Positions 8,691 through 50,923 of a stretch of 52,008 bases of DNA are shown here, piece after piece. A program made the translations under genes and the position numbers. Every line of letters starts with the position of its first letter. Within the stretch, counting starts at the first letter, position 1. Where the stretch lies: NCBI GenBank assembly GCA_050699035.1, contig JBOHDE010000003.1, positions 1 through 52,008 of the forward strand. The letters run 5' to 3'. The DNA comes from Nocardioidaceae bacterium (lineage in GTDB: Bacteria; Actinomycetota; Actinomycetes; Propionibacteriales; Nocardioidaceae). The notes under the pieces are model-generated. The model was not told where the DNA came from, searched no databases, and was given only the letters and a program-made list of their open reading frames with translations.

Positions 8691-8711
8691 CGGCTGGCAG
8701 ACTGTCCTCCC

Positions 8712-17334: not shown

Positions 17335-17344
17335 CCACCAGAGC

Positions 17345-17409: not shown

Positions 17410-17444
17410 GAGGGGGCGGTGGGTGAGGGTGGCGGCTGAGATAT

Positions 17445-17456
17445 CTTGACGTCAAG
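17445..17456. promoter_or_regulatory. perfect 12-bp palindrome CTTGACGTCAAG upstream of icd (contains a TTGACG -35-like hexamer)
   Basis: Read directly from the sequence, 35 nt upstream of the icd ATG. Its function is inferred only. Confidence 0.3.
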
Positions 17457-17490
17457 CAATCTTCTCCGCAGCAGACCGGGAGCCGTCTCC

Positions 17491-18708: not shown

Positions 18709-18723
18709 TCGACCGCCGCGTCG

Positions 18724-18757
18724 AAGGCGCGAGGCCGCTTCCGCGGTCTCGCGCCTT
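18724..18757 (+). terminator. intrinsic terminator after icd
   Basis: AAGGCGCGAG - loop - CTCGCGCCTT followed by a T-containing tail, 16 nt after the icd stop. Confidence 0.6.
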
Positions 18758-18857
18758 TGCGTGTTCTGGCCCATCGCGGCCCGCAGACCCCTAGCATCAT
18801 CCTTGGGGAGGGGGTACGAGGCGACGACCGTCGCCCGCTGACAAGGAGCGTCTCGCG

Positions 18858-31351: not shown

Positions 31352-31453
31352 CGTCGCCACCGGTCGTCGGACCGCCGATCCGGGCACTGGGGAAACAATT
31401 GTGCGTTGTGGGGGACGAGAGTTCCCCCAGCGACCGACGAGCGACTGCTCGGG

Positions 31454-32104
31454 CTAGCGGTAGGCGCGTTGCGAGTCGCGGCCCCACGTCGTGGACGTCT
31501 CCTTCGCAGAGAGTCGCCACGATGACGGCTTGGAGGAGAAGGTCGTCGTTGAGACGCGGCCCCTCGAGTCGCTGGTGAGCGTCTTGACGTAGCGCCACCT
31601 GCCGGCGCTGTACCGCTGAAGGGTGACTTTCGTCCCGGCCCAGGGTCGGAAGGCGGTGTAGGTCGGGGACCACCGGGTGACTGTGCCGGCGACGGCGACT
31701 GTATTGCCACGGCGAGAGGTGGATGTGACGCTCGATCGTGAGCCCCACTTGACGATGATGTCGTCGACCGCATTGCCCGCCCGGTCGCATTCAGCCAGCA
31801 TCCGGTAACCGCCCGGCCGGACCTCCCAGTCATAGATCCGCATGTCCCCAGAGCTCGCATCAGCGTCCGCAAAGTCAATGTCGACGAGGGTCCGGCTGGA
31901 CGTGTGCTGCAGTTCGATCGAGCACCAGTCATTGTTCAGATCGACTCCGTTGACACTCCACCGGACGTTTTCGTACGAGTGGACGACCGCCACTTTCTCC
32001 GGCGTCGCGTCAATGCTCGGAGCCGCGTAGGCGCCGGGGGTAGCCGACACGACTCCGACTGTGGCGGCGACGATGCCGACGAGGGCAGGGCGGAGGCGGA
32101 CCAT
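31454..32104 (-). CDS. secreted hypothetical protein (signal peptide plus beta-rich domains)
   Basis: Signal peptide: MVRLRPALVGIVAATVGVVSATPGAYA. 216 aa. The C-terminal half resembles prealbumin/Big-like repeats (TVAVAGTVTRW ... GTKVTLQRYSAGRWRYVKTLTSDSRGRV). Codon usage is atypical (see findings). Confidence 0.5.
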   Translation of the reverse strand: MVRLRPALVGIVAATVGVVSATPGAYAAPSIDATPEKVAVVHSYENVRWSVNGVDLNNDWCSIELQHTSSRTLVDIDFADADASSGDMRIYDWEVRPGGYRMLAECDRAGNAVDDIIVKWGSRSSVTSTSRRGNTVAVAGTVTRWSPTYTAFRPWAGTKVTLQRYSAGRWRYVKTLTSDSRGRVSTTTFSSKPSSWRLSAKETSTTWGRDSQRAYR

Positions 32105-32215
32105 GGGGGTTGCCTTTCGAGGAGAGTGCCGGAAGTCCCAGGCGCGGTGAGACTAGTGGCCCCGGGCGGACCGTGTGGTCGCTTTGGGGAAACTCGGTCG
32201 AGACTGCGCCGCGGT

Positions 32216-33262
32216 TCAGGCCAGGTGTTGGTCGAGGAAGTCAACGGTGCGCCGCATCGACCGCGGCCATTGCGGCCCGAAGGCATGCGCCTCCCCGTCG
32301 TACACGTGCAGCCTGGCATCGACACCTGCGCTCGTCAGCGCGGACAACGTCGTTCGGCTCCACGCGATCGGGCAGCTGTCGTCGGCCGTGCCGTGATGCA
32401 TCAGCACCGGCTCGGTGACCCGGTCGAAGTAGGTGCGCGGGCTGACATGCCGCCAGAACCACGGGTTGGCCTCGGGAGACCCATACGCGGCGATGATCTG
32501 TCGAGCGGCGCCGGCGCGTTCCGGCCGGGTCCAGCGGTTGAAGTTGTCGACCGTGTCGGAGCTGACCGACGCGAACACGACCGCGGCGTCGACGAGGCCG
32601 GGCTGCACGGCGAGCGCGTTCAAGGTGACGCCGCCGCCCATCGACCGGCCCAGCAGCGCCACCCGCTCACCGTCGATCTTGGGGTTGGTGGAGGCCTTGA
32701 CCGCGAGTACGGCGTTGATGACGTCCTCGGTGTAGCCGAGCCGCAATCGCTGCTCCGCCGACCGGTCGGGCGACGACTGCGCATGACTTCGGTAGTCGGT
32801 GTGCAGGACGACGTACCCCTCGCGGGCGAGGTAGTCCTGCTCCCGCATCAGGCCCTGGCCGTTGTTGTAGATCGCGGGATCGATGTAGCCGTGGTTGAGG
32901 ACGACCACCGGGAACGGACCGTTGCCCTGGGGCAGGTTGAGGATCCCGGAGATGGTCAGGCGACCGCTCTTGTACGTCGCGAAGTAGCGCGTGTACGCGT
33001 CGGTGCGGGCCAGGACACGACCAACCCGCAGGCCGCGTCCGTCGTACTCCTTGCGCATCAGAGCGGGCAAGGACACCGGATGGGGCGGTTTCGCCGTCCG
33101 GGTCGGGCTGGTGTTGGTCGGGCTGGGTGAGTCCGGAGCGGTCGACGTCGTCGTGGGTGGTGGCGTGGCCCGGGGAGCGGACTGCTCTTCGGCCGGGGCG
33201 GAGGTGCAGGCCGTGAGTACGCCGATCAGGACGAACAACGCCATGAACTGGGGTGCGCGCAT
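32216..33262 (-). CDS. alpha/beta hydrolase, prolyl-oligopeptidase (S9)-like lipoprotein
   Basis: Lipobox LIGVLTAC, then a Pro/Thr linker. Nucleophile elbow LLGRSMGGG. C-terminal MHHGTADDSCP ... GEAHAF, typical of the S9/dienelactone-hydrolase-like catalytic Asp/His region. Confidence 0.75.
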   Translation of the reverse strand: MRAPQFMALFVLIGVLTACTSAPAEEQSAPRATPPPTTTSTAPDSPSPTNTSPTRTAKPPHPVSLPALMRKEYDGRGLRVGRVLARTDAYTRYFATYKSGRLTISGILNLPQGNGPFPVVVLNHGYIDPAIYNNGQGLMREQDYLAREGYVVLHTDYRSHAQSSPDRSAEQRLRLGYTEDVINAVLAVKASTNPKIDGERVALLGRSMGGGVTLNALAVQPGLVDAAVVFASVSSDTVDNFNRWTRPERAGAARQIIAAYGSPEANPWFWRHVSPRTYFDRVTEPVLMHHGTADDSCPIAWSRTTLSALTSAGVDARLHVYDGEAHAFGPQWPRSMRRTVDFLDQHLA

Positions 33263-33360
33263 GAATCCATGGTGCCTCGGCGGGTCCAGAACACGCGCAG
33301 TCTGTCTGCTCGGCCGGGAGGATGTGGTGGGATCGAACTAGTCGACAGAGGGGTGATTCG

Positions 33361-34113
33361 ATGCTGCTCGAAGGCAGGAACGCGGTCATCTACGGAGCCG
33401 GTGGAGCGATCGGTGGTGCGGTTGCCCGGGCCTTCGCCGCAGAGGGGGCGCGGGTCTTCCTTACCGGCCGCACGCGGGCGAAGCTGGATCTGGTCGCGGA
33501 GGAGATCCGGTCGGCGGGTGGTGCAGCCGAGGCGGCCGAGGTCGATGCGCTCGACGAGCAGGCAGTGGACGAGCATGCCGACGCGGTGGCGGCGCAGGGT
33601 GGCCTCGACGTCTCCGTCAACCTGATCGCCCATGGGGACGTTCATGGGACGCCGATGGCGCAGATGCGGCCCGAGGACTATGCCCGGCCGGTCGAGATCG
33701 CCGTCCGGACGACGTTCCTGACCTCGCGGGCCGCGGCCCGCCACATGATCCGGCAGCGGTCGGGGGTGATCTTGGCGTTCGGCGGCTCAGGCGACCCGAT
33801 GCGCGACTACTACCTGGGCGGCACCCAGGTCGCGTTCGAGGCGATCGAGTCGATGCGGCGGCAGCTGGCGGCCGAGCTGGGACCGTACGGCGTGCGGGTC
33901 GTGACGCTGCGTACGGGCGGTGTGCCCGAGACGATCCCGGCCGGCGCCGACGGGCGAGCAGAGATCGTCGGCGGGATCGAGAGTCAGACCATGACGGGCC
34001 GGGCGGCGACGCTCGAGGACGTGGGGAACGTGGCCGCCTTCGTGGCGTCCGACCGGGCCCGCACCATGACCGCGGCCACCGCCAACATCAGCGCTGGTGC
34101 GTTGGTCGACTAG
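33361..34113 (+). CDS. SDR-family oxidoreductase
   Basis: GRNAVIYGAGGAIGGAVARAFAAEGARVFLTGR is the Rossmann TGxxxGxG-type motif. 250 aa. The start is trimmed to the ATG at 33361. Confidence 0.8.
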   Translation: MLLEGRNAVIYGAGGAIGGAVARAFAAEGARVFLTGRTRAKLDLVAEEIRSAGGAAEAAEVDALDEQAVDEHADAVAAQGGLDVSVNLIAHGDVHGTPMAQMRPEDYARPVEIAVRTTFLTSRAAARHMIRQRSGVILAFGGSGDPMRDYYLGGTQVAFEAIESMRRQLAAELGPYGVRVVTLRTGGVPETIPAGADGRAEIVGGIESQTMTGRAATLEDVGNVAAFVASDRARTMTAATANISAGALVD

Positions 34114-34276
34114 GGTGTGGCTCCTTACTCCGCTGACCTGCTGCGCGACCCTCGGAGGGCGCCTCGCGGCGTTGTCGTCGTCGCACGATGCTGCGCATCG
34201 CGTCTCCTCCTCCGCCTTGCGATGCATCCCACCGAGCGCCGCTCGCGACGGTCGGGAGTAAGGAGCCACACCCTAG
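34110..34276. mobile_element. 167-bp MITE-like element with 22-bp perfect terminal inverted repeats
   Basis: CTAGGGTGTGGCTCCTTACTCC (34110-34131) and GGAGTAAGGAGCCACACCCTAG (34255-34276) are exact reverse complements. Read as a 19-bp TIR, the element is flanked by TA on both sides. It carries no ORF. Confidence 0.45.
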
Positions 34277-34383
34277 GCGTTGATCGGCCCGGTTTTCGTC
34301 CACAGGGCAAGGAGATACGGCCTGTATCCACAGGTCGAATCGAGGTTCTGATGGTGACGGCGACCCTCCTCTAGCGTCGGGGG

Positions 34384-35676
34384 ATGGAGTTCTTCGACGA
34401 GCCGGTTGACCTACAGCCCTGGAGGCTGTCGGACGCCGAGGTCGTCGACGCGATGGATGCCGCGTACGAGGCGGCGACGCGGGCGCATGCGGTGGCCCTG
34501 CGGCTGCTCGTCGAGGTCGACAGGCGCGGGCTGGCGAAGGCGGCCGGGGCTTCGTCGACGCAGGCCTGGCTGCAGCAGCGGCGGCGGTTCCGTCCTCAGC
34601 AGGCCAGACGTGACGTGGAGCTCGCCCGGTTGATCGACATCCGCAACCCCGCGGACCCCGAGTCCGACGGGCGGGTCGAGGGAGCGGCAGTCGGCGCGGC
34701 GCTGGACGCGGGTGCGATGACGGTGGATCAGGCCGGAGTGGTCGCGATCGCGCTGTCGGAGCTGCCGGAGGACCTGGCGGCCGGGCCGCGGGTGCAGGCG
34801 GAGGAGATCCTGGTCGCCGAAGCGGGTCGGCTCAGCCCGGCCGATCTGTGCCGGGCCGGACATCAGGTCCTGGCGCAGGTCGACCCCGACGCCGCCGACC
34901 GAACACTGGCCGAACAGCTCGCCCGTGAGGAGCGCGAGGCCTACCGACTGAGGTCGGCCACCAGGTGGGCGGACGGCCACGGGTCGGTGCATTACCGGGT
35001 TCGAGTGCCGAACGCCGAGGACGCACACATCTGGCCGGTGCTCGATGCCCTCGCTCGGCCGACGCCGTCAGACGGCAGCGGGCAGCGCGACGAGCGGACC
35101 GGACGGCAGCGGATGGCCGACGCCGTCGTCGAGACGTTCCGCCGGGTCAGCCTCGACGGCGGGCTGCCCACGAACGGCGGCGACCGCCCACGAGCGACTA
35201 TCACCATGGAGCTCGAGACGCTGCGGTCGGGCCTCGGCGCCGCCAGCAACGTCGACACCGGCGACCTGCTGTCCGCCGACGCCGCCCGTCGGCTCGCCTG
35301 CGACGCCCAGGTCATCCCGGTCGTGCTCGGCGGAGCCGGCCAGGTCCTGGATGTCGGCCGGGCCCGCCGAACTTTCGACGGTCCAGTCCGCACCGCGGTC
35401 ATCGTCCGCGACGGTGGCTGTGTGCATCCCGGTTGTGACCGTCCGGCCCGCTGGTGCGACGTGCATCACGTGATCCCGTGGTGGGCCGGCGGCGACACCA
35501 GCCTCGCCAACGGCGTCCTTCTCTGCGGGTTCCATCACACGCTGTACGACAACGGCACCTGGCACCTCAGTTTCGCCGCCGACGGCATCCCGGAGGCCGT
35601 TCCACCGACCTGGGTCGACCGCGCCCAGCGGCCTATCCGCAACACTCGGTTCAAACGACGACCCGACGCCGCCTGA
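34384..35676 (+). CDS. DUF222 / HNH endonuclease-domain protein (REP13E12-like)
   Basis: The N-terminal DUF222-type region has Ala/Arg-rich helices. The C-terminal HNH reads DGGCVHPGCDRPARWCDVHHVIPWWAGGDTSLANGVLLCGFHHTLYDNGTW. Confidence 0.85.
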   Translation: MEFFDEPVDLQPWRLSDAEVVDAMDAAYEAATRAHAVALRLLVEVDRRGLAKAAGASSTQAWLQQRRRFRPQQARRDVELARLIDIRNPADPESDGRVEGAAVGAALDAGAMTVDQAGVVAIALSELPEDLAAGPRVQAEEILVAEAGRLSPADLCRAGHQVLAQVDPDAADRTLAEQLAREEREAYRLRSATRWADGHGSVHYRVRVPNAEDAHIWPVLDALARPTPSDGSGQRDERTGRQRMADAVVETFRRVSLDGGLPTNGGDRPRATITMELETLRSGLGAASNVDTGDLLSADAARRLACDAQVIPVVLGGAGQVLDVGRARRTFDGPVRTAVIVRDGGCVHPGCDRPARWCDVHHVIPWWAGGDTSLANGVLLCGFHHTLYDNGTWHLSFAADGIPEAVPPTWVDRAQRPIRNTRFKRRPDAA

Positions 35677-35714
35677 CATACGAGATCGCTCGGCGACGAG
35701 CGGGCGAACCCTGA

Positions 35715-35985
35715 CGGGAGTACGAGTTCAACGAGCACGATCTCGCCACACAGGCAGCGGCGCTTCCGGAGCGGTTCTCAGACCGACTGGAAGCAGGCGA
35801 CCTTGCCGACGTTCGCTCGCTCGCCGATGGTGGCGAATGGGCCGAAGAGATCGACGTGCTCATGGCATGTCTGCACGACGCAGGCAAAACGAGTCACCCG
35901 CGCTGAACGAGATCAACTGGCCGCGCTGCTTGACGTCATCCAGGTGCCCCACGACCGCCTGGACGTCATCGAGGTGGCTGGCTAG
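35715..35985 (+). pseudogene. possible frameshifted, start-less gene remnant
   Basis: One frame reads EYEFNEHDLATQAAALPERFSDRLEAGDLADVRSLADGGEWAEEIDVLMACLHDAGK, then a stop. A frame shift continues as RVTRAERDQLAALLDVIQVPHDRLDVIEVAG. There is no start codon. GC3 is depressed (19 of 62 codons end in A/T by hand count). Confidence 0.2.
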
Positions 35986-36035
35986 TCGCCACAGCAGCAG
36001 ATCGGCAAGCCAGGTCAAGCGCCAACGACCGCGGG

Positions 36036-36716
36036 TCAGGTGGGGCGCACCGGCACGGACCGCGGGAGCAGGTCGGCGATCGCTCGCTCAAGTCCGGCGG
36101 TGCCGGTGTCGACCACGGTCAGCGGGAGGCCGAGGGCGTCGGCGGCCTGCTGCGCGAGCCGGTGCAGCTCCGGGTCCGGCTCCTGGGCCAGCCAGACCAC
36201 CCGGGTGTAGTGGCCGAAGTAGTCGTCGCGCAGCTCGGGATGGCGGTCGAGCCCGAGTTCCTGGAGCACGGTGCGGCCGAACGAACGCACCAGAAAGTCG
36301 GTGAGGACGTAGGTACCGGGCTGCTCGTCGAAGAAGCGCTGCAACTGAGCCGGACCCGCGTACACGTCGTAGCAGTGCAGACCGGCCAGCCGCCGCAGGT
36401 TGAGCCGGTCGCACACCTCGTCGAGGGCGCCGTACGTGCCACAGTCGGCGTAGCCGATCGCCACTGTCGGGTAGCGGCGCAGCAGCGACGTCGCGAGCGT
36501 CTCCACCTGCCCGGCGATGAGCTGGGGCCGGTTGTGCAGCAGCGGAGGCAGCGGGTGCACGTCGACGGGCCACGCGTGCCGGTGGACCAGCGCCGTGGCC
36601 GGCTGGGCGAGCGCGCCGCAGGCAATCAACCCGATGCGGGCAGCGACCTCAGCCGGGGAACGCGAGCTGGTCGACGAACTTGTCGTTGAAGTCAGCACGG
36701 TCGGAGAGCTCGACAT
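36036..36716 (-). CDS. DUF1638 domain protein (unknown function, associated with corrinoid methyltransferase loci)
   Basis: 226 aa. IGLIACGAL ... HPLPPLLHNRP ... IGYADCGTYGALD ... LHCYDVYAG ... VLTDFLVRSF matches my memory of DUF1638. Start is the ATG at 36716 or the GTG at 36698. Either overlaps the upstream gene end (36649) by 50-68 nt. Confidence 0.65.
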   Translation of the reverse strand: MSSSPTVLTSTTSSSTSSRSPAEVAARIGLIACGALAQPATALVHRHAWPVDVHPLPPLLHNRPQLIAGQVETLATSLLRRYPTVAIGYADCGTYGALDEVCDRLNLRRLAGLHCYDVYAGPAQLQRFFDEQPGTYVLTDFLVRSFGRTVLQELGLDRHPELRDDYFGHYTRVVWLAQEPDPELHRLAQQAADALGLPLTVVDTGTAGLERAIADLLPRSVPVRPT

Positions 36717-38574
36717 AGCGCACCTCCTCCAGCAGCGTCATCGCGCCGGCCCGCTCGCGCAGGCTGAGCAGCGTCATCTTCGCGCCTTCGCCGGCGACAT
36801 TGCCGGCCGAGACGATCCGCAGCACGGGCAGCTTCGGGACAAGCCCGATCCGGACGGCGGACGCGGGGGACAGGTAGCTGCCGAACGACCCGGCGAGCAG
36901 CACCTGTTGCACGTCGCCGGCCTCGGCGCCGAGCTCCTCGAGCAGCAGCGACCAGCCGGTCGCGATTGCCGCCTTCGCGAACTGCAGCTCGCGGACATCC
37001 CGCTGCGACAGGTAGACGGTGTCCGCAGCGTCCTCGGCCCCGTCCGGCCGGAACAGCACGAAGACCCGTTCCTCGCCGATCTTGGCCAACCGCCCAGCCA
37101 GCGTCGGAGCGACCGACGCCGCGACGTCATCGGGCACGAACCGACCGGAGCTGTCGAGCAGCCCTACCTTCACCAGCTCGGCGACGGCGTCCACGAGCCC
37201 TGAGCCGCACAGCCCCGCCGGGCTGATGTCGCCGATCACCTGCAGCTCGACGTCGTCGCTGAGGCGTACGACCTCGATCGCGCCCTCGGCCGCCCGCATC
37301 CCGCAACGGATCGCGCCGCCCTCGAACGCGGGCCCGGCCGGTGCGGCCGTCGACACCGTCCGTTCACCGTCGCCGAGCACGATCTCGCAGTTGGTGCCGA
37401 CGTCGATGAACAGCCGCATCCGCTTGTCGCGGTCCATCCCGGTCGCCAGCATCCCGGCCACGATGTCGCCGCCCACATAGGCACCTAGCGCCGGGAGCAC
37501 CGCCGCCGGTGCGCCGGGGTGGATCAACACCCCCAGGTCGGACGCGAGTACGCCGGACACGGTCGCCGACGACATCACGAACGGTGCGACGCCGATCGGC
37601 TCGGGGTCGATGCCCAGAGCCAGGGCAACCATGGTGGCGTTGCCGGCGAGCGCGACCTCGTAGACCTCGTCGGGCTCGACTCCACCCTCTTTGCAGACCG
37701 CCTGCGCAAGCTCGTCGAGGGTCGCGTGGGCGAGCCCGCGCAGCCGGTCGAGCGCGTCGGGGTCCATCATGGTGGCGCTGATCCGGGTGATGACGTCCCC
37801 ACCGAACGGCTGCTGCCGATTGAGCATCGACTGCACCGCCACCGGCGTGCCCGTCGAGACGTCGAGCAGGGTCGCCACCACCGTCGTCGTACCCAGGTCG
37901 AACGCGATCGCGTGCCGCCGCGCCGACGTGTCGCCCGGCTCCACGTCGATCAGCACGTCGTCGACCACCACCGCGGTCACCTTGAAGTCCGCCGAACGCA
38001 GCACGGTGGGCAGCCGCCGTAGCGCGTGCAGGTCGACGGTCAGCTCCAAGTCCTCGATCGCGCCGAGCAGCCGTACCAGGTCGGTCCGCTGGTCGGACAG
38101 CGTCGGCTCGGCCAGCTCGACGTACCGCTTCTGCACGGCGGGCCGGAGGATCACCTGCCGCCCGACGCCGACCGTCGCCGCCTTGGGACGGGTGACGAGC
38201 GGCGGCACCTCGACCCGGAGGTCGTTCGTGGCCTGGGCGAGGCAGGCCAGCCGCCAGCCGGCGTTGAGCTGCTCACCGGTGAACGAGCGGACGTCGAGCC
38301 GCGAGACCGGCACCGAGCCGGTCAGGATCTGCACCTTGCACTTCTTGCAGGTCCCGTGCCCCCCACAGGTCGAGTCGATGGCGATGCCATTCCAGCTGGC
38401 CGCGTCGAAGACAGTGACCCCCGGCGGCACCCGGACCGACCGCTCGGCCGGCGCGAACGAGAGCTCGACCCGGCCCGTCCCGTCGTGCGCGACCAGCTCG
38501 CCCGTGGTGCTCTGGTCCGCGGGGGGTTCGATCAACCCCTCACGGGCGAGATGGCTGAGATCGGTCTCGCTCAC
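36649..38574 (-). CDS. reductive activator of corrinoid proteins (RACo/RamA-like): N-terminal [2Fe-2S] ferredoxin domain plus ASKHA ATPase domain
   Basis: The start is trimmed to the GTG at 38574 (GTGA overlap with the upstream stop). The Cys motif CGGHGTCKKCKV ... C is as in RACo ferredoxin domains. The ASKHA core reads [17 protein letters not shown] ... GGDVITRI ... FIDVGTNCEIVLG ... PAFEGG. Confidence 0.8.
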   Translation of the reverse strand: MSETDLSHLAREGLIEPPADQSTTGELVAHDGTGRVELSFAPAERSVRVPPGVTVFDAASWNGIAIDSTCGGHGTCKKCKVQILTGSVPVSRLDVRSFTGEQLNAGWRLACLAQATNDLRVEVPPLVTRPKAATVGVGRQVILRPAVQKRYVELAEPTLSDQRTDLVRLLGAIEDLELTVDLHALRRLPTVLRSADFKVTAVVVDDVLIDVEPGDTSARRHAIAFDLGTTTVVATLLDVSTGTPVAVQSMLNRQQPFGGDVITRISATMMDPDALDRLRGLAHATLDELAQAVCKEGGVEPDEVYEVALAGNATMVALALGIDPEPIGVAPFVMSSATVSGVLASDLGVLIHPGAPAAVLPALGAYVGGDIVAGMLATGMDRDKRMRLFIDVGTNCEIVLGDGERTVSTAAPAGPAFEGGAIRCGMRAAEGAIEVVRLSDDVELQVIGDISPAGLCGSGLVDAVAELVKVGLLDSSGRFVPDDVAASVAPTLAGRLAKIGEERVFVLFRPDGAEDAADTVYLSQRDVRELQFAKAAIATGWSLLLEELGAEAGDVQQVLLAGSFGSYLSPASAVRIGLVPKLPVLRIVSAGNVAGEGAKMTLLSLRERAGAMTLLEEVRYVELSDRADFNDKFVDQLAFPG

Positions 38575-39469
38575 GTCGCGCCTGACTCCCGCAAGGTTGC
38601 TTGCTTGGCCCGGTGCGCGGCGATCCAGGAGCCGCCCCACTCGTCGTGGCCGAGCAGGAGGTCGGCGGCCTTGACGGCTTCGACGATCTCCGGAGTACGG
38701 GCGTCCATGATCGCGCTGGTCAGCCCCGCGGTCATCGCCATCGGCAGGTACGCCGAGCCGATGGCGTGGCGGCCCGGCATGCCGAACGACACGTTCGAGG
38801 CGCCGCACGTCATGTTGAGCCCGTACGTCTCGCGGATCCGGCGGATCGTCTCCAGCGTCGTCTGCACAACCGACGTGTCGGCACCGATCGGCATCGCCAA
38901 CGGGTCGATCACGATGTCGGCCAGCGCGATGCCGTACTCCTTGGTCGCGACGTCGACGATCTTGCCCACCAGCTCCAGCCGCTTGTCGGCGTCCATCGGG
39001 ATCTCGTCGGCGTCGTTGGGCAGTGCGATGACGGCTGCGTCGTACTTCTTGACCAGCGGGAGGATTGCCGCCATCCGGTCGTCCTCGGCCGTGATCGAGT
39101 TGACCAGCGCACGGCCCTGGTACGTCGCGAGCCCGGCCTCGAGCGCCTCGACGACCGACGAGTCGATGCAGATCGGCAGGTCTGTCAGCGACTGGATGAG
39201 TGTGATGGCCCTAGCCAGCAGGTCCGCCTCGTCGGTCAGGGGTACGCCCATGTTGACGTCGAGTACGTCGGCGCCACCGGCCACCTGCGCGGCGACGTCA
39301 CGCTCGATCGCCGACAGGTCGCCGGCCCGCAGCTGGTCCTGGAAGATCCGCCGGCCGGTGGGGTTGATCCGCTCGCCGATCAGGCAGAACGGCCGGCCGT
39401 GGCCGATCACCACCTCGCGGGTGGCCGACCGGAGCGTCGTCTCCTGCAGTGCCGTCTGCACGTGCGTCG

Positions 39470-39473
<4 letters not shown>
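38571..39473 (-). CDS. methyltetrahydrofolate:corrinoid methyltransferase (pterin-binding domain, MtgA/MeTr/MetH-module-like)
   Basis: 300 aa. LIGERINPTG ... GADVLDVNMG ... ICIDSS ... ALVNSI ... IDPLAMPIG ... CGASNVSFGMP is the pterin-binding barrel pattern. Confidence 0.85.
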
Positions 39474-40131
<658 letters not shown>

Positions 40132-40135
<4 letters not shown>

Positions 40136-40899
40136 GCAGCGCCCTCCTTGTGAGTGCGACGACGGAGCAGGCGCGACAGGGAGTCGGCCTGCTCGACCAA
40201 CAGCTCGCCGATGTCGTCGAGCTGGTCCCCGAGACGGGCACTGGGGCCCGAGACTCCGAGTGCCGCGATGGTGTGTCCGTCGCGGCCGTGGACCGGCGCC
40301 GCCACGGCGTCGAGTCCGACTTCGAGCTCCTCGCGGGTCACGGCGTAGCCGTGCCGGCGAATGTCTCGAACTTCCTTGTCCAGCTGGGATCTGCTGGCCA
40401 CCGTCTGCGGGGTCGGCCGCTCCAGGTCGCCGTCGGGCAGGTCGAGGGAGTCGTACGCGTACAGCACCTTGCCGAGGGCGGAGCAGTGCGCTGGGACGTC
40501 GACCTCCAGCCAGTCGCGTGCGCCGAGCACGAACGTCGCGTTGACCTGGGCGATCTGCACGACGGTCTCGCCGCGGGGGATGGCCAGGTTGACCGTCTCC
40601 CCGGTCTGGGCGCCCAGCTTCTGCAGCACCGGGTCGGCCAGTCGGGCGACCTGCGTCCACGGGTCGTGCCGGGCGGCGTACAGGGCGAACAGTGGCCCCG
40701 ACACGAACGAGCCGTGCGAGTCGCGCTCGAGCAGGTGGTTGCGCTCGAGCGCGGTGAGCAGCCGCGACGTCGTCGACCGGGCCAGCCCGGTCTCGTCGGC
40801 GAGGTCGGTGAAGCTGATCGGCTCGTCGGCCTGCACGACCAGGGACAGCAGCTGGGCCGCCCGGTCGACGGCCTGCGCGCCGTTCGCGGTGCTGGTCAT
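40132..40899 (-). CDS. IclR-family transcriptional regulator (first gene of the corrinoid operon)
   Basis: AVDRAAQLLSLVVQADEPISFTDLADETGLARSTTSRLLTALE (wHTH) plus the IclR effector domain (GYAVTREELEVGLDAVAAPV). Confidence 0.85.
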
Positions 40900-40939
40900 G
40901 GGTTCCTTGGGAGCTCGGTGGTGACGGCTGTGGGCAGGT

Positions 40940-40956
40940 GTTCCATAACATGGAAC
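40940..40956. promoter_or_regulatory. candidate operator GTTCCAT-AAC-ATGGAAC in the iclR / mttB divergent promoter region
   Basis: Perfect 7-3-7 palindrome in the 114-bp spacer. A CATAAT -10-like hexamer follows at 40966-40971. AAGGAGG lies 7 nt upstream of the mttB-family ATG. Confidence 0.4.
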
Positions 40957-41013
40957 CCGACTCCCACATAATGAGGTTAGGATCTCGATCAGGCCGGGTC
41001 AAGGAGGTAGTCG

Positions 41014-42453
41014 ATGTTTCGCAATGCCATGCCGCGCTACGAGGTGCTGTCCGCCGAGGCGATGGAGACGCTCGACAAGGGCTGGCGCCGAATCGTCAGC
41101 GAGATCGGCGTGGAGTTCATGTCCGACCGGGCGCTCGACCTGTTCCGTCAGGCCGGGCAGCGGGTCGAGGACAACACGGTGTTCCTCGACCCCGATTTCG
41201 TGCTGGCCCAGGTCGCGAAGGCGCCACGCGAGTTCGACGTCGCCGCCCGCAACCCCGACAACACCCTCCACATCGGCGGCGACGCGATGGCGTTCGGCGC
41301 GGTCTACGGCCCACCGTTCGTCCGCCAGGGCGACGTGCGGCGCGACGCGACCATGGAGGACTTCCGGTCCTTCACCAAGCTGGCGCAGTCCTTTCCCGTA
41401 CTCGACTCCGCGGGGGGCGTGATCTGTGAGCCCAACGACACGCCGTTGGACTCACGGCACCTCGACATGACGTACGCCCTGCAGACCCTGACCGACAAGG
41501 TCTACATGGGCAACGTGGTGTCCGGGCCCAACGCCGTCGACACCATCGAGATGAGCTCGATTCTCTTCGGTGGCAGGGAAATCATCGAGCAGACGCCGGT
41601 GACCATCTCGCTGATCAACTGCAACTCGCCGCTGCGGTGGGACGACCGGATGCTCGACGCGCAGTTCGAGTACAGCGCCGCCAACCAGCCGGTCGTGCTC
41701 ACGCCATTCCTGCTGATGGGCGCCATGTCCCCGGTCACGATCCCGGCCGCGCTGGTGCAACAGATGGCCGAGGCGCTGTCCGGCATCGCGTTGTCGCAGC
41801 TGATCCGTCCCGGGTGCCCGGTGATCTTCGGGTCGTTCCTCTCCAACATCGACATGCAGTCCGGCTCGCCCTGCTTCGGCACGCCGGAGTCCGGGATCGG
41901 GCTGCTCTGCACCGGCCAGATCGCACGCCACTTCGGGCTGCCGTTCCGGTCCGGCGGCGCGATGACGTCCTCCCAGGTGCCCGATGCGCAGGCCGGCTAC
42001 GAAGCGCTGATGACGTTGCTGCCGACGTTCCTCGCCGGCGCCAACTGGGTGATGCACTCCGCCGGGTGGCTCGAGGGCGGCCTGGTCGCGGGGTACGAGA
42101 AGTTCATCGTCGACGTCGAACTGCTGCAGATGATGCGGGTGGAGTTCACCCCACTGGAGATCGACGAGGCGTCGCTGGCGTTCGACGCGCACACCGAGGT
42201 CGGCCACGGCGGCCACTTCCTCGGTGCGATGCACACGATGGAGCGGTTCCGCACCTGCTTCTACCGGCCGATGCTGTCGTCGTCGGACAACTACGAACGG
42301 TGGATGAAGAACGGCGCCGCGGATACCGCCGACCGGGCGGCGACGATCTACCAGCAGCGGCTCGACGAGTACGAGGCCCCGTCGATCGACGACGCGGTCC
42401 GGGCCGAGCTGGAGGAGTACGTCGTACGGCGCCGCAAGGAGCTTGGCGACTGA
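41014..42453 (+). CDS. MttB-superfamily methyltransferase lacking pyrrolysine (quaternary amine:corrinoid methyltransferase; glycine betaine is the contextual substrate guess)
   Basis: 479 aa. The N-terminus YEVLSAEAMETLDKGWRRIVSEIGVEF ... ALDLFRQAGQRV and the TIM-barrel length match the trimethylamine methyltransferase family. The ORF is uninterrupted, with no in-frame TAG. Confidence 0.85.
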   Translation: MFRNAMPRYEVLSAEAMETLDKGWRRIVSEIGVEFMSDRALDLFRQAGQRVEDNTVFLDPDFVLAQVAKAPREFDVAARNPDNTLHIGGDAMAFGAVYGPPFVRQGDVRRDATMEDFRSFTKLAQSFPVLDSAGGVICEPNDTPLDSRHLDMTYALQTLTDKVYMGNVVSGPNAVDTIEMSSILFGGREIIEQTPVTISLINCNSPLRWDDRMLDAQFEYSAANQPVVLTPFLLMGAMSPVTIPAALVQQMAEALSGIALSQLIRPGCPVIFGSFLSNIDMQSGSPCFGTPESGIGLLCTGQIARHFGLPFRSGGAMTSSQVPDAQAGYEALMTLLPTFLAGANWVMHSAGWLEGGLVAGYEKFIVDVELLQMMRVEFTPLEIDEASLAFDAHTEVGHGGHFLGAMHTMERFRTCFYRPMLSSSDNYERWMKNGAADTADRAATIYQQRLDEYEAPSIDDAVRAELEEYVVRRRKELGD

Positions 42454-42456
42454 TCG

Positions 42457-42690
42457 TCAGAAGATCGTCGCGAGCATGACCAGCAGTAGTGGAGCGACGA
42501 AGCTCGCCAGCACCAGCCACGCGACCACCCGGTGCGAACCCTTGTCCGACGACAACGACCCGGCCATCGCGACCAGGGCGCCCTCCTCGGTGTTGCGGTC
42601 GAGGCCCATCAGCTGAGCGTCGCTCGGCACACCGTGCAGCGCGTGTGCGTGCCCGGTTGGGTCGAATTCGGCGTGGTCGGGGTCCGGCAC
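42457..42690 (-). CDS. possible small His-rich protein with a C-terminal TM anchor
   Basis: Tail of a longer spurious ORF. Candidate starts are the GTG at 42690 (77 aa) or the ATG at 42609 (50 aa). It ends in HRVVAWLVLASFVAPLLLVMLATIF. There is no RBS, and it sits between the mttB-family stop and the purU stop. Confidence 0.25.
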   Translation of the reverse strand: MPDPDHAEFDPTGHAHALHGVPSDAQLMGLDRNTEEGALVAMAGSLSSDKGSHRVVAWLVLASFVAPLLLVMLATIF

Positions 42691-42794: not shown

Positions 42795-43679
42795 TCAGCG
42801 GAAGACGACGGTGCGGTGGCCGTTGAGCAGGACCCGGCTCTCGGAGTGCCAGCGCACGGCGCGCGACAGTACCTGGCTCTCCACGTCGCGACCGGCGGCG
42901 GCCAGCTGGGCGGCGCTCAGCCCGTGGTCGACGCGGGCGACGTCCTGCTCGATAATCGGGCCCTCGTCGAGGTCTGCGGTCACGTAGTGCGCCGTCGCCC
43001 CGATCAGCTTGACGCCTCGGTCGAACGCCTGGTGGTACGGCTTTGCCCCCTTGAAGCTCGGCAGGAACGAGTGGTGGATGTTGATCGCCCGCCCCTCGAG
43101 TCGCTTGCAGGTGTCGTCGGACAGCACCTGCATGTAGCGGGCGAGCACGACCAAGTCGATATCGAGCTCGTCGACGAGTGCCAGCAGCCGGGCCTCGGCC
43201 TCGGGCTTGTTGTCGGCCGTCACCGGGAGGTGGTGGAAGTCGATGCCGTGCGCCGCGGCGAGCGGGGCGAAGTCCTCGTGGTTGGAGACGATCGCGGGCA
43301 CGTCGATCTGCAGCGACCCGGTGCTCCACCGGAACAGCAGGTCGTTGAGGCAGTGCCCGAACCTCGACACCATGACCAGCGTCCGGTACGGCGCGGACGC
43401 GTCCCACAGCTGCCAGGTCATGGCGTACGACGCCGCGACGCCCGCGAACGCCTCCTGCAGCGACGCGAGCGTGTGCCCCGGCTCGAAGGTCTCGAAATGC
43501 ACCCGCATGAAGAAGCGGTCCTCGATCCGATCGTCGAACTGCTGGCTCTCGAGGATGTTCCCGGAGTGCTGGACGAGGAAGCCCGACACGGCGAACACGA
43601 TGCCGGGGCGGTCCGGGCAGACGATCGTCAGCACGTACTCCGGATTGGTCACCGAAACCTCCTGGGTACGTTGCGTCAT
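42795..43679 (-). CDS. purU: formyltetrahydrofolate deformylase
   Basis: The ACT domain (VLTIVCPDRPGIVFAVSGFLVQHSGNILESQQF) is followed by the formyltransferase core (NIHHSFLPSFKGAKPYHQA ... GATAHYVT.DLDEGPII). Confidence 0.9.
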   Translation of the reverse strand: MTQRTQEVSVTNPEYVLTIVCPDRPGIVFAVSGFLVQHSGNILESQQFDDRIEDRFFMRVHFETFEPGHTLASLQEAFAGVAASYAMTWQLWDASAPYRTLVMVSRFGHCLNDLLFRWSTGSLQIDVPAIVSNHEDFAPLAAAHGIDFHHLPVTADNKPEAEARLLALVDELDIDLVVLARYMQVLSDDTCKRLEGRAINIHHSFLPSFKGAKPYHQAFDRGVKLIGATAHYVTADLDEGPIIEQDVARVDHGLSAAQLAAAGRDVESQVLSRAVRWHSESRVLLNGHRTVVFR

Positions 43680-43691
43680 CGAGAACTCAGT

Positions 43692-43704
43692 TTGCGATAC
43701 GCAA
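43692..43704. promoter_or_regulatory. candidate operator TTGCG-ATA-CGCAA between purU and the second iclR gene
   Basis: Perfect palindrome in the 49-bp divergent spacer. Confidence 0.4.
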
Positions 43705-43728
43705 CACGATCTGCGCTACTGTCTCGTA

Positions 43729-44502
43729 ATGAGCAACACGGTCGAGGCACCCAGCACCGTGCAGTCGGTCGACCGGGCCGTCACCATTCTCGAGATTCTG
43801 GCCCGCAACGGCGAGTCGGGTGTCACCGAGATCGCCGCCGAGCTCGGCGTGCACAAGTCCACGGCCTTCCGGCTGGTCGCGGCCCTCGAGCAGCGTGGAC
43901 TGGTCGAGCAGGCCGGCGACCGGGGCAAGTACCGGCTCGGGGTCGGCATCTTGCGGCTGGCCGGCGCGACCACGGCCCGGCTCGATGTGGTCCAGGAGGC
44001 CCGGCCGGTCTGCCGCAAGCTGGCCGCAGACACCGGCGAGACCGTCAACATCGCCGTCCTCTCCGAGAACTCCGCGCTCTACCTCGACCAGATCGCCGGC
44101 TCGTCGGCGCTGCAGCCGCACAACTGGGTCGGCCAGCACATCCCGCTGCACGCCACGTCCAACGGCAAGGTCTTGCTGAGCGGGCTCCACCAGGACGAGC
44201 TGAGCCAGGTCCTGCGCTCGCTGCGTTCCTACACCGAGACCACGATCACCTCGAAGGCCAAGCTGCGGCGCGAGCTCGAGCAGGTCCGGCAGCGTGGGTA
44301 CGCCGTGGCGATCGACGAGCTCGAGGTCGGGCTGACCGCACTCGCGGCGCCGATCCACAACGCGCACGGGGACGTGATCGCGTCACTGAGCGTGTCCGGC
44401 CCGAGCTTCCGGCTGACGCCTGAGGCGGTCGAGTCGGCCGTGCCCACGCTGGTCGAGGCCGCCGCCGAGGTGTCGAACCGGCTGGGCTGGGGCGTCCGTT
44501 GA
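43729..44502 (+). CDS. IclR-family transcriptional regulator
   Basis: SVDRAVTILEILARNGESGVTEIAAELGVHKSTAFRLVAALE plus GYAVAIDELEVGLTALAAPI. The start is trimmed to the ATG at 43729. Confidence 0.9.
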   Translation: MSNTVEAPSTVQSVDRAVTILEILARNGESGVTEIAAELGVHKSTAFRLVAALEQRGLVEQAGDRGKYRLGVGILRLAGATTARLDVVQEARPVCRKLAADTGETVNIAVLSENSALYLDQIAGSSALQPHNWVGQHIPLHATSNGKVLLSGLHQDELSQVLRSLRSYTETTITSKAKLRRELEQVRQRGYAVAIDELEVGLTALAAPIHNAHGDVIASLSVSGPSFRLTPEAVESAVPTLVEAAAEVSNRLGWGVR

Positions 44503-44593: not shown

Positions 44594-44645
44594 GTTGTTG
44601 CGTAGAACACAAAGAGTTGCGCAACGTGCAACGCCGTGCGGCAAC
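44594..44645. promoter_or_regulatory. cluster of TTGC/GCAA half-sites upstream of betB (includes the palindrome GTTGCGCAAC at 44616-44625)
   Basis: GTTGCG (44598), GTTGCGCAAC (44616-44625), GTGCAAC (44626-44632) and GCGGCAAC (44638-44645). The half-site matches the purU/iclR palindrome. Confidence 0.35.
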
Positions 44646-44659: not shown

Positions 44660-46129
44660 GTGCCCGACATCTTTGTGCATGGCCGTTGGGAGAGCGCGCG
44701 CGACGGTGGGCGCCGCGAGATCCGCTGCCCAGCCGACGGGAGCCTGGTCGCCGAGGTCGACGAGGCCGGCCCCAAGGACACCGCGGAGGCGATCGAGAGC
44801 GCGCGCACGGCGTTCGACGACGGGCCCTGGCCGGGCACGCCGGCCGCCGAGCGCGGAGCCCTGCTGGGGCGGGTCGCCGACCTCCTCGAGCGCGACAAGG
44901 CCGAGGTGGCCCGCGCCGAGTCGCTCGACACCGGCAAGCGCCTGGTCGAGAGCGAGTACGACGTCGACGACGTGGTCGGCGTCTTCCGGCACTACGCCCG
45001 GGTCGCCGGCGAGGACGCCGGGCGGGTCGTGGACACCGGGCGGGCGGACGTCGTCAGCCGCATCGTGCACGAGCCGGTCGGCGTCTGCGGTCTGATCACG
45101 CCGTGGAACTATCCGCTGCTGCAGACCGCGTGGAAGGTGGCGCCGGCGCTGGCGGCCGGCAACACGTTCGTGCTCAAGCCCAGCGAGCTCACGCCGTCGA
45201 CCGCGATCGTGCTGATGCGTCAGCTCGCCGAGGCCGGCCTGCCGGACGGTGCCGCCAACCTCGTCCTCGGCGCGGGAGCGCAGGCGGGCGCACCACTGGC
45301 CGAGGACCCACGCGTCGACCTGGTGTCGTTCACCGGCGGGCTCGAGACCGGCAAGCGCATCATGGCCACGGCCGCCGGCACGGTGAAGAAGGTCGCGCTC
45401 GAGCTCGGCGGCAAGAACCCGAACGTCGTGTTCGCCGACGCCGACCCCGAGACCGCCCTCGACTTCGCACTGACCGCCGTCTTCCTGCACTCCGGGCAGG
45501 TCTGCTCGGCCGGTGCCCGGCTCGTGGTCGAAGAGTCGATCCACGACCAGCTCGTTGACGAGATTGTCAAGCGGGCAAAGAAGATCCGGCTCGGCGGACC
45601 ATTCGATGACGACGCCGAGACCGGGCCGCTCATCTCGGCGGCTCATCGCGACAAGGTCGAGGCGTTCGTCGCGGACGGCATCGCCGCCGGCGCCGTACTC
45701 CGTTGTGGGGGCGAACGACCCGCCGCACCTGCACTCGTCGACGGTTTCTACTACCCTCCGACAGTGCTTGACGGTTGTGACCGCACGATGAGCGTCGTGC
45801 ACGAGGAGTCGTTCGGCCCGGTGCTGACGGTCGAGACGTTCGGCACCGAGGACGAGGCGGTGGCGATCGCGAACGACAGCCACTTCGGGCTGGCCGGCGC
45901 GGTCTGGACCGACAACGCGGGCAAGGCCGAGCGGGTGGCCGCCCGGCTGCGGATGGGCACGGTGTGGATCAACGACTACCACCCGTACGTCCCGCAGGCC
46001 GAGTGGGGCGGCTACAAGCAGTCCGGAGTCGGCCGTGAGCTCGGCCGGGCCGGGCTGGACGAGTACCGCGAGACCAAACACGTCTGGCACAACGTGCGGC
46101 CCACACCACAACGGTGGTTCGGCGGCTGA
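44660..46129 (+). CDS. betB: betaine-aldehyde dehydrogenase (ALDH family)
   Basis: AGGAGG lies 4 nt upstream of the GTG at 44660. ALDH motifs: ITPWNYPLL, FTGG.ETGK, LELGGKNP, and the catalytic Cys in HSGQVCSAG. Sits directly upstream of betA. Confidence 0.85.
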   Translation: MPDIFVHGRWESARDGGRREIRCPADGSLVAEVDEAGPKDTAEAIESARTAFDDGPWPGTPAAERGALLGRVADLLERDKAEVARAESLDTGKRLVESEYDVDDVVGVFRHYARVAGEDAGRVVDTGRADVVSRIVHEPVGVCGLITPWNYPLLQTAWKVAPALAAGNTFVLKPSELTPSTAIVLMRQLAEAGLPDGAANLVLGAGAQAGAPLAEDPRVDLVSFTGGLETGKRIMATAAGTVKKVALELGGKNPNVVFADADPETALDFALTAVFLHSGQVCSAGARLVVEESIHDQLVDEIVKRAKKIRLGGPFDDDAETGPLISAAHRDKVEAFVADGIAAGAVLRCGGERPAAPALVDGFYYPPTVLDGCDRTMSVVHEESFGPVLTVETFGTEDEAVAIANDSHFGLAGAVWTDNAGKAERVAARLRMGTVWINDYHPYVPQAEWGGYKQSGVGRELGRAGLDEYRETKHVWHNVRPTPQRWFGG

Positions 46130-46177: not shown

Positions 46178-47853
46178 ATGACCGAGACAGACGTCGACTT
46201 CGTCATCGTGGGCGGTGGCTCGGCCGGCTGCGCCCTGGCGAACCGGCTCAGCGCCGACCCGGGCAACCGCGTGCTCGTGCTCGAAGCCGGCCGGTCCGAC
46301 TTCGTCTGGGACCCGTTCATCCACATGCCCGCCGCGCTGCCGATCCCGATCGGCAACCGGCTCTACGACTGGAAGTACGAGTCGGAGCCCGAGCCGCAGA
46401 TGGGCGGTCGCACGATCTACCACGCCCGCGGCAAGGTGCTCGGCGGTTCGAGCAGCATCAACGGGATGATCTTCCAGCGCGGCAACCCGCTGGACTACGA
46501 GCGGTGGGCCGCCGACCCGGGCATGGAGACGTGGAGCTACGCACACTGCCTGCCGTACTTCAAGCGGATGGAGACCTGCCTGGCCGGCGCCGACGCCTGG
46601 CGCGGGGCCAGTGGACCGCTGGTGCTCGAGCGCGGTCCGGCGACGAACCCGTTGTTCGGTGCGTTCTTCGAGGCCGCCAAGCAGGCCGGCTACCCGCTGA
46701 CCGACGACGTCAACGGCTACCGCCAGGAGGGCTTCGCGCCGTTCGACCGCAACGTGCACCGCGGCCGCCGGCTGAGTGCGGCGCGGGCCTACCTGCACCC
46801 GGTGATGGGCCGCAAGAACCTCACCGTCCGGACGCTCGCGATGACCACCAAGGTGCTGTTCGAGGGCACCCGCGCGGTGGGGGTCACCTACACCCGCGGC
46901 CGGCGTGAGCACACGGTCCGCGCGGGCGAGGTCATCCTCTGCGGCGGCGCCATCAACTCGCCGCAGCTGCTGCAGCTGTCCGGTGTCGGCAACGCGGACG
47001 ACCTGGCCGGCCTGGAGATCGACGTCGTCGCCGACGTACCCGGCGTCGGCGAGCATCTGCAGGACCACCTCGAGGTCTACATCCAGTACGCCTCCAAGCT
47101 GCCGGTGTCGATCGCGCCCGGGCTGAAGTGGCGCAACCGGCCACGGGTCGGCGCCGAGTGGCTGTTCCTCCGCAAGGGGCTCGGCGCCACCAACCACTTC
47201 GAGGGCGGCGGCTTCGTCCGCAGCAACGACGACGTCGACTACCCGAACCTGATGTTCCACTTCCTGCCGATCGCGATCCGCTATGACGGCACCGCGCCGA
47301 CCAAGGGGCACGGCTACCAGGTGCACATCGGGCCGATGTACTCCGACGCCCGTGGCACCGTCAAGATCACCTCGACCGACCCGCGCGACCACCCGGCGCT
47401 GCGCTTCAACTACCTCTCCACCGACCAGGACCGCCGGGAGTGGGTCGAGTCGGTCCGGGTCGCGCGCAGCATCCTCAACCAGCCCGCGTTCGAGCCGTTC
47501 AACGACGGCGAGCTGTCACCGGGGCCCCAGGTCGAGACCGACGAGCAGATCCTCGACTGGGTCGCCAAGGACGCGGAGACCGCACTGCACCCGTCCTGCA
47601 CGGCCCGGATGGGCACCGACGACCTGTCCGTGCTGGACCCCACCACCCTGCGCGTGCACGGCGTCGACGGCCTCCGGGTCGTGGACGCGTCGTCGATGCC
47701 GTACGTCACCAACGGCAACATCTACGCGCCGGTCATGATGCTGGCCGAGAAGTCGGCCGACCTCATCCTCGGCAACGCACCACTCGAGCCGTCCCATGCG
47801 CCGTACTACCGCTACCGCGACGGCAGCCCCCTCTATCCCACCGGAGGCAACCC

Positions 47854-47857
<4 letters not shown>
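46178..47857 (+). CDS. betA: choline dehydrogenase (GMC oxidoreductase)
   Basis: [19 protein letters not shown] ... [13 protein letters not shown] ... the HPSCTARMG region ... VVDASSMP. 559 aa. Confidence 0.9.
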
Positions 47858-48914
<1,057 letters not shown>

Positions 48915-48918
<4 letters not shown>

Positions 48919-50909: not shown

Positions 50910-50923
50910 ATGAAGGAGACACA

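Follow-up and report, generated by a model that had tools for sequence, protein, structure and literature searches.

The window analysed here is a stretch of 52,008 nucleotides from a Nocardioidaceae bacterium (assembly GCA_050699035.1, contig JBOHDE010000003.1, positions 1 to 52,008, forward strand), and it carries a corrinoid-dependent methyltransferase system of the MttB type close to genes for choline oxidation and transport (Table 1). A first-pass annotation made from the sequence alone had described six genes in this region, encoding a non-pyrrolysine MttB homologue, an IclR regulator, a corrinoid protein, a pterin methyltransferase, a RACo-type activase and a DUF1638 protein. All six open reading frames (ORFs) were present as described, and each assignment was confirmed by Pfam and NCBIfam. 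The component set is complete, comprising a substrate:corrinoid methyltransferase, a corrinoid protein, a methyl-corrinoid:tetrahydrofolate (THF) methyltransferase, an ATP-dependent activase and DUF1638. The four junctions between the genes on the minus strand overlap by 4 nt at 40132-40135, 39470-39473 and 38571-38574, and by 68 nt at 36649-36716, where 50-68 nt had been estimated. We consider it probable that the region is a choline/glycine betaine catabolic island of an aerobic actinobacterium, the core of which is a cobalamin-dependent methyl transfer from glycine betaine to THF.

The G+C content is about 70% across the whole window, and the six-gene region is of like composition. An Rfam scan of the whole window found no family at the gathering score, cobalamin riboswitch included. 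There are no tRNA genes in the window and therefore no tRNA-Pyl.

Table 1. Features of the methyltransferase locus and its neighbourhood. Positions are those of the window; locus counts refer to related loci with enough downstream flank.
Feature	Position	Strand	Evidence
Divergent MTHFR-like protein	30485-31351	+	PF02219 28 bits (cut-off 24); PDB 7xg9 (288-aa MTHFR) E=3e-32
S9/alpha-beta hydrolase (in insertion)	32216-33262	-	
Short-chain dehydrogenase (in insertion)	33322-34113	+	
DUF222-HNH endonuclease protein (in insertion)	34384-35676	+	
DUF1638 protein	36036-36716	-	PF07796
RACo-type reductive activase	36649-38574	-	641 aa, GTG start; Fer2, RACo_linker, Raco_middle, RACo_C_ter
Pterin-binding methyltransferase, MtgD/MeTr-like	38571-39473	-	PF00809; PRK07535 313 bits (cut-off 259)
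Corrinoid (B12-binding) protein, MtgC-like	39470-40135	-	221 aa; PF02310 and PF02607
IclR-family regulator, first gene of corrinoid operon	40132-40899	-	HTH_IclR and IclR_C
Perfect palindrome GTTCCATAACATGGAAC, candidate operator of operon IclR	40940-40956		In 114-nt divergent promoter region
MttB-superfamily methyltransferase, MtgB-like, non-pyrrolysine	41014-42453	+	479 aa; PF06253 E=3.4e-188, 476/479 residues covered
Formyl-THF deformylase PurU	42795-43679	-	TIGR00655 338 bits (cut-off 286); 54/63 loci
Second IclR regulator	43729-44502	+	62/63 loci
Betaine-aldehyde dehydrogenase, BetB-like	44660-46129	+	PF00171; TIGR01804 BADH 591 bits, under cut-off 669; 56/63 loci
Choline dehydrogenase BetA (GMC)	46178-47857	+	TIGR01810 833 bits (cut-off 732); 59/63 loci
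Choline/betaine ABC transporter	47854-51898	+	ATPase, permease and binding protein
ProV-type ATPase	47854-48918	+	TIGR01186 360 (cut-off 327)
Fused double permease, choline type	48915-50909	+	TIGR03416 372.5 (cut-off 363)
OpuAC binding protein	50963-51898	+	PF04069 E=1e-40

Conservation of the locus

Synteny was counted in the best 80 loci, 66 of which had enough upstream flank and 63 enough downstream flank. These loci belong to close relatives (82-99% identity) and are not independent samples; because they are so closely related, the counts give the stability of the island inside the lineage and not independent origins. Upstream, the corrinoid protein was found in all 66 loci, the operon IclR, the pterin methyltransferase, RACo and DUF1638 in 65 each, and the methylenetetrahydrofolate reductase (MTHFR)-like protein in 64. 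Downstream, betA or betB lies within 10 kb in 59 of the 63 loci and purU in 54.

The protein closest to the MttB homologue is 99% identical and comes from a metagenome-assembled genome (MAG) of the Propionibacteriales. Hundreds of further relatives, 82-90% identical, occur in Nocardioides, Marmoricola, Dactylosporangium, Jatrophihabitans, Geodermatophilaceae and Mycobacteriales, and confirmed relatives were found in at least 591 species-representative genomes. Plasmid-borne homologues are also found, all of them in proteobacterial hosts and less than 60% identical, with none in actinobacteria. Across actinobacterial orders the cluster proteins are 70-88% identical, and MttB 86-87% (loci L004 of Dactylosporangium, L012 of Geodermatophilaceae, L019 of Jatrophihabitans and L007 of Mycobacteriales). 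This is above what would be expected for orthologues so far apart in taxonomy, and could reflect either very strong selection or horizontal spread within Actinomycetota.

The MttB homologue and its binding pocket

The product of the gene at 41014-42453 is the proposed glycine betaine:corrinoid methyltransferase. That it belongs to the MttB superfamily (PF06253 / COG5598), one of the points on which the first-pass annotation had made its reading depend, is borne out by the full-length PF06253 match and by matches to PDB entries 4yyc, 2qne and 9yce at E=1e-116 to 1e-131. Its relationships were gauged by pairwise comparison with solved structures and one Paracoccus homologue, which gave 40% identity to MtgB of Desulfitobacterium hafniense (DhMtgB) and 45% to 4yyc.

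NCBI and JGI records give homologues of this protein the name trimethylamine methyltransferase (family protein), and the pyrrolysine-type equivalog TIGR02369 is its best NCBIfam match, as if it were a true trimethylamine:corrinoid methyltransferase. However, the score against TIGR02369 is 273.7 bits, far under the cut-off of 525. The ORF ends in TGA and has no TAG in frame, as the earlier annotation had it, and Met317 stands at the pyrrolysine position (X334 of 7xcl) in the alignment with the Methanosarcina barkeri MttB structure. The match to M. barkeri MttB reaches 126 bits, compared to 394-442 bits for non-pyrrolysine members, and the window has no tRNA-Pyl. The missing UAG, Met317 and the low TIGR02369 score effectively refute a trimethylamine enzyme, to which we assign a negligible probability.

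In the glycine betaine site of DhMtgB, the ammonium group is in contact with Y97 and F356 and the carboxylate is held by R312 and H348 (Picking et al. 2026, PMC13080624). Three of these residues, Y98 (equivalent to DhMtgB Y97), R312 and H348, do not vary between the window protein and its 80 orthologues, and all of these proteins have Gly at position 356, where DhMtgB has Phe. W352 is also invariant and lies within the motif HSAGWLEGGL, which is found as well in the best PDB match, 4yyc; judging from the alignment, Trp352 may assume the cation-pi role of F356.

The first-pass annotation held the true substrate among the quaternary amines to be unknown. It had overlooked the neighbours: purU, betB, betA and a choline/betaine transporter lie directly downstream, in conserved synteny, and glycine betaine is the strongly favoured substrate. 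This call comes mainly from synteny because 40-45% identity is insufficient for it, as MtcB and MtyB are 53% identical and yet differ in preferred substrate (PMC8604678).

Several points weigh against our proposal. One of the four DhMtgB binding residues is replaced by Gly in every orthologue, and the F356L variant of DhMtgB had its Km raised several-hundred-fold (PMC13080624). The identity to the biochemically proven enzyme is only 40%, and family members with different substrates can be more alike than this, as MtcB and MtyB are. Moreover, genes for a dimethylglycine or sarcosine oxidase were found neither in the window nor within 10 kb of the cluster in four related loci, it is taxonomy and not this contig that points to an aerobic lifestyle, and our literature search found no experimental work on an actinobacterial member.

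The changed pocket and the low identity would also fit the same system with an MttB homologue whose substrate is some other betaine or quaternary amine, for instance proline betaine, carnitine, gamma-butyrobetaine or phosphocholine; the bet genes would then be nearby for a related reason. Indeed, the protein falls outside the clade formed by DhMtgB and the MtgB of Methanolobus vulcani, which are 65% identical to each other, and enzymes that act on other acidic quaternary amines also have R312 and H348 (PMC13080624). However, BetA and BetB would produce glycine betaine next door in 59 of the 63 loci, the transporter is of the choline/betaine type, and there is a single MttB homologue per cluster. 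Y98 is kept in the window protein, while MtpB, MtcB, MtyB and MthB have no conserved aromatic pair (PMC13080624), and genetically validated proteobacterial glycine betaine enzymes are about as far from DhMtgB. We therefore regard another amine as an unlikely substrate.

The corrinoid protein and the pterin methyltransferase

The 221-aa protein, whose B12-binding fold was another point on which the earlier reading depended, has a PF02607 cap, a PF02310 Rossmann domain and the DxHxxG motif. The motifs are DVHDIG at residues 102-107, SAF at 149, with Phe for Leu, and GG at 180, as in corrinoid proteins of the base-off/His-on methyltransferase type, SAF being a variant of the SxL motif. Its best NCBIfam match is MtgC_2 (202 bits, under the cut-off), and it matches PDB 1y80 at E=1e-55 and MttC (7xcn_M) at E=3e-41. 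Its proposed role is to carry the methyl group, alternating between the Co(I) and CH3-Co(III) states. The pterin methyltransferase matches the MeTr structure 2yck (E=2.5e-42) and is not of the Desulfitobacterium MtgA type (NF047990 E=0.008). We propose that it is the methyl-corrinoid:THF methyltransferase.

A pterin methyltransferase of the MetH/MeTr type would also suit a split methionine synthase. Both Ruegeria and Phaeobacter need MtgC and MtgD for methionine synthesis, shared there with the homocysteine module MtgE, as well as for the use of glycine betaine (PMC12478193, PMC5764234, preprint 10.64898/2025.12.19.695462), and here the corrinoid protein, the pterin methyltransferase, RACo and DUF1638 could serve mainly or additionally in that way. 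However, no homocysteine S-methyltransferase was found among the window ORFs scanned with Pfam, and the four genes form a unit behind a dedicated IclR, paired with mttB, bet and purU, which points to a catabolic, inducible unit. A role in methionine synthesis is thus quite unlikely, and betaine demethylation remains our preferred function for the operon.

The RACo activase, DUF1638 and their overlapping genes

The activase has the full architecture of the RACo type, a [2Fe-2S] ferredoxin domain with four Cys (C70-x5-C76-x2-C79...C111), a linker, a middle domain and an ASKHA ATPase (DLGTT226, DVGTN391), and it matches PDB 3zyy over its full length at E=5e-98. It is the proposed ATP-driven repair enzyme, returning Co(II) to Co(I).

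The DUF1638 gene begins inside the RACo frame. An alternative GTG start at 36698 would reduce the overlap from the 68 nt given by the ATG start to 50 nt. However, the 68-nt overlap is taken to be the real one because the ATG, located 62-68 nt inside the RACo frame, is conserved in about 70 related loci, is the sole possible start in many of them, and is preceded in the window by GGAGGAGG, formed by the RACo codons for L-E-E-V. RACo codons (LEEVRYVEL) thus supply both the GGAGG Shine-Dalgarno sequence and the DUF1638 ATG. Out of the RACo frame, the overlap specifies a Ser/Thr-rich DUF1638 tail (MSSSPT.PTSTT.SS.SS), and residues 1-20, which are overlap-encoded, are disordered in the AlphaFold2 (AF2) model, the overall pLDDT of which is 80. 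From this arrangement we infer that DUF1638 would be translationally coupled to RACo and would act as a partner of the activase. Three long proteins of the representative library (P0285, P0274 and P0338), considered as candidate RACo-DUF1638 fusions, have patchy domain coverage; they were treated as frameshifted metagenome contigs and were taken as evidence neither for fusion nor for programmed frameshifting.

DUF1638 has no match in the PDB by sequence, and a Foldseek comparison of its AF2 model with the PDB gave nothing below E=1e-3, with TM-scores under 0.45; the fold points to no function. A library-wide search yielded 1317 representative homologues. Comparison of 29 diverse homologues (34-62% identity) showed C33, C92, G93, G96, C115 and P160 to be invariant and H61 to be near-invariant. 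The AF2 model puts these residues after strands 1, 2 and 3 or at the beginning of the next helix, so that they share one edge of the parallel sheet, which may hold a metal, iron-sulfur or active site. A four-Cys cluster was considered and rejected, as C102 is conserved only in close relatives. In the representative library DUF1638 is fused to a fragment of a DAO-type FAD oxidoreductase in P0263 and to a PF13769 'Virulence_fact' domain in P0334; the first of these fusions hints at a tie between DUF1638 and dimethylglycine/sarcosine oxidation.

Regulators and promoter region

The perfect palindrome GTTCCATAACATGGAAC occurs only once in the window with zero mismatches, and it overlaps a sigma-70-like -35/-10 pair at 40945-40972. 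Of 81 sequences upstream of mttB, 50 contain the motif GTTCCAYNNYRTGGAAC with another half-site, GTYCCACATCATGAGG, after it. The position and conservation of these elements suggest that the operon IclR controls the divergent promoter through the palindrome. The second IclR gene is accompanied by different palindromes, GTTTGCGATACGCAAC at 43690-43705, before purU and the regulator gene itself, and GTTGCGCAACGTGCAAC at 44616-44632, before betB. They are unlike the mttB operator, which suggests two separate IclR regulons, one for bet/purU and one for the corrinoid genes. In the mttB leader, GGTCAAG at 40996-41002 is conserved in related loci with variable spacing to the Shine-Dalgarno sequence; this motif lies outside the palindrome and belongs to no known RNA family.

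Neighbouring genes

The MTHFR-like gene is part of the cluster and the immediate neighbour of DUF1638 in 49 of 64 related loci; the flank beyond it is variable. We propose that its product oxidises methyl-THF to methylene-THF, while PurU would release formate and regenerate THF. In the window, the MTHFR-like gene is parted from DUF1638 by a 4.7-kb insertion (31352-36035), also present in the 99%-identical MAG (locus L001).

A formate-THF ligase gene (PF01268) stands between mttB and purU in 15 of the 63 loci, for example at 11776-13455 in locus L006 and 17268-18947 in locus L005. The window has no such gene there and instead shows a gap of 342 nt, in which an ORF of 77 aa (42457-42690) matches no known family. 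FolD (8655-9581), PurN and PurH are encoded elsewhere in the window. Of the genes from which an aerobic heterotroph had been deduced at first, icd (17446-18708), mdh (9875-10861) and the GMC choline dehydrogenase were recovered, but sucD was not found among the scanned ORFs. Several well supported ORFs with third-position G+C (GC3) above 0.85, at 2881-4779 (-), 15893-17334 (+) and 217-912 (-), have no Pfam family; a 632-aa protein adjoining kynureninase is among their products.

Proposed pathway

According to the proposed pathway, choline would be taken up by the ABC transporter and oxidised by BetA and BetB, via betaine aldehyde, to glycine betaine. The MttB homologue would then bind glycine betaine, with R312 and H348 on the carboxylate and Y98, probably together with W352, on the trimethylammonium group. 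One methyl group would be transferred to the Co(I) of the corrinoid protein, with His104 as the lower axial ligand, leaving dimethylglycine. The pterin methyltransferase would move the methyl from CH3-Co(III) to THF, and the MTHFR-like enzyme, FolD and PurU would oxidise methyl-THF to formate. Whenever Co(I) is lost to Co(II), the RACo-type activase could re-reduce it with its [2Fe-2S] cluster and ATP, and DUF1638 would be produced in fixed proportion to RACo via the overlapping frame. Control of the divergent promoter would fall to the operon IclR, acting at the 40940-40956 palindrome. Of all this, the gene content, motifs, overlaps and synteny are observed, whereas the substrate, the direction in which the methyl group moves, the parts played by W352 and DUF1638 and the regulation are deduced.

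A more far-reaching reading joins these elements, and we offer it only tentatively, since we think it has a lesser chance of being right than of being wrong. The cluster might represent a distinct lineage of B12-dependent demethylases that is the main choline/betaine route in Nocardioidaceae and other aerobic soil Actinomycetota, with Trp352 in place of Phe356 and an obligate RACo-DUF1638 repair pair made from overlapping frames. DUF1638 could then be a metal or iron-sulfur protein with three Cys (plus His) that supplies or gates the electron, making the chemistry workable in air. If this were true, the turnover of osmolytes in oxic soils would be governed by the supply of B12 and cobalt, and a function could be given to DUF1638.

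Both choline and glycine betaine are abundant as osmolytes, and organisms differ most in the step that takes the first methyl group off glycine betaine, which is carried out by GbcAB, BHMT or MtgBCD. The cluster would extend a 2025 finding in marine proteobacteria to common aerobic soil bacteria, being present in a complete and tightly conserved version in the actinobacterial genomes counted above. It predicts that betaine turnover in these bacteria depends on cobalt and B12, and it corrects the misleading trimethylamine methyltransferase annotation. It also provides two small leads, the W352/G356 variant of the pocket and the Cys-rich DUF1638, whose translation would be tied to that of its partner, the activase.

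Comparison with known systems

The nearest relatives of the window belong to the Propionibacteriales/Nocardioidaceae, with many cultured Nocardioides species among them. Nocardioides is an aerobic genus, and an aerobic host is plausible. The first-pass annotation saw here an oxygen-exposed Co(I) system with its own repair enzyme, of a kind characterised almost only in strict anaerobes. The oxygen-exposed setting holds as far as the relatives make an aerobic host plausible. However, the restriction to anaerobes is out of date and the novelty does not stand, as corrinoid-dependent demethylation of glycine betaine has already been published in aerobes (Mausz et al. 2025; Price et al. 2018).

The activase shares its four-domain architecture with RACo of Carboxydothermus hydrogenoformans (PDB 3zyy; AcsV). 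However, it would serve a methyltransferase corrinoid protein and not CoFeSP, its score of 411 bits is under the AcsV cut-off of 800, and its gene is coupled to that of DUF1638. The MtpB, MtcB, MtyB and MthB enzymes of Eubacterium limosum, with MtqC and MtqA, are likewise quaternary-amine methyltransferases of the MttB superfamily feeding THF, with the conserved Arg binding the acidic group of their substrates (PMC13080624). They differ in their substrates, in their anaerobic acetogen host and in their aromatic pair, which is not conserved, whereas Y98 is kept in the window.

The MtgB/MtgC/MtgA system of Desulfitobacterium hafniense (PDB 2qne, 9yce) has in common with the window a non-pyrrolysine MttB TIM barrel (full length, E=6e-117) with the same Y97, R312 and H348 residues, a corrinoid protein of the His-on type that is a separate polypeptide, and a partner for ATP-dependent reactivation. 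In contrast, the window protein is only 40% identical to DhMtgB, while the two proven MtgBs, of D. hafniense and M. vulcani, share 65% with each other; F356 is changed to Gly, the THF methyltransferase is of the MetH/MeTr type instead of MtgA, and D. hafniense and M. vulcani are strict anaerobes.

Aerobic systems come closer. Ruegeria pomeroyi uses MtgB/MtgC/MtgD, as established by knockouts and proteomics (Mausz et al., PNAS 2025, PMC12478193); MtgC and MtgD are needed for its growth on glycine betaine, and PF06253 MtgB proteins, a RamA-like protein, DUF1638 and MetF2 are induced. In the same study about 5% of marine mtgC reads were assigned to Actinomycetota. Phaeobacter inhibens, also aerobic, needs a ferredoxin-DUF4445 (RamA-like) protein and DUF1638 with its split B12 methionine synthase, and genes for these two proteins co-occur across Alphaproteobacteria (Price et al. 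2018, PMC5764234). A 2025 preprint (10.64898/2025.12.19.695462) presents genetic work on ΔmtgB1 and takes up the autoxidation of Co(I) in air. Plasmid p1 of Paracoccus methylovorus has a cassette in which an MttB homologue is divergent from genes for a B12-binding protein, DUF1638, MTHFR, a pterin methyltransferase and an ASKHA protein, the products being 32-46% identical to those of the window.

The cluster is most likely an uncharacterised actinobacterial member of these aerobic B12-dependent glycine betaine demethylase systems, and not a new kind of system. As in the MtgBCD sets of Ruegeria and Phaeobacter, a PF06253 methyltransferase, a separate B12-binding protein and a pterin methyltransferase of the MetH/MeTr type are encoded together, a ferredoxin-ASKHA activase, DUF1638 and a dedicated, adjacent MTHFR stand alongside, and the whole is tied to choline/betaine catabolism and THF C1 oxidation by the neighbouring betA, betB, transporter and purU genes. 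The motif GWLEGGL, in place of the F356 region of DhMtgB, is common to the window protein and the proteobacterial-type structure 4yyc. The novelty is modest, and consists of the actinobacterial lineage, with its at least 591 species genomes, the changed pocket (G356 and invariant Trp352) and the conserved 62-68-nt RACo/DUF1638 overlap, to which the internal Shine-Dalgarno sequence, the three invariant DUF1638 cysteines and the conserved candidate IclR operator can be added as further new details. Compared to the alphaproteobacterial system, the parts found in this actinobacterial window are gathered in one tight operon behind IclR, and no MtgE was found among the ORFs scanned near the cluster. 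DUF1638 overlaps RACo by 68 nt, whereas in Alphaproteobacteria it comes after the corrinoid gene, and the MTHFR is of the short 288-aa type (PDB 7xg9), in contrast to the alphaproteobacterial MetF with a MetF C-terminal-domain protein.

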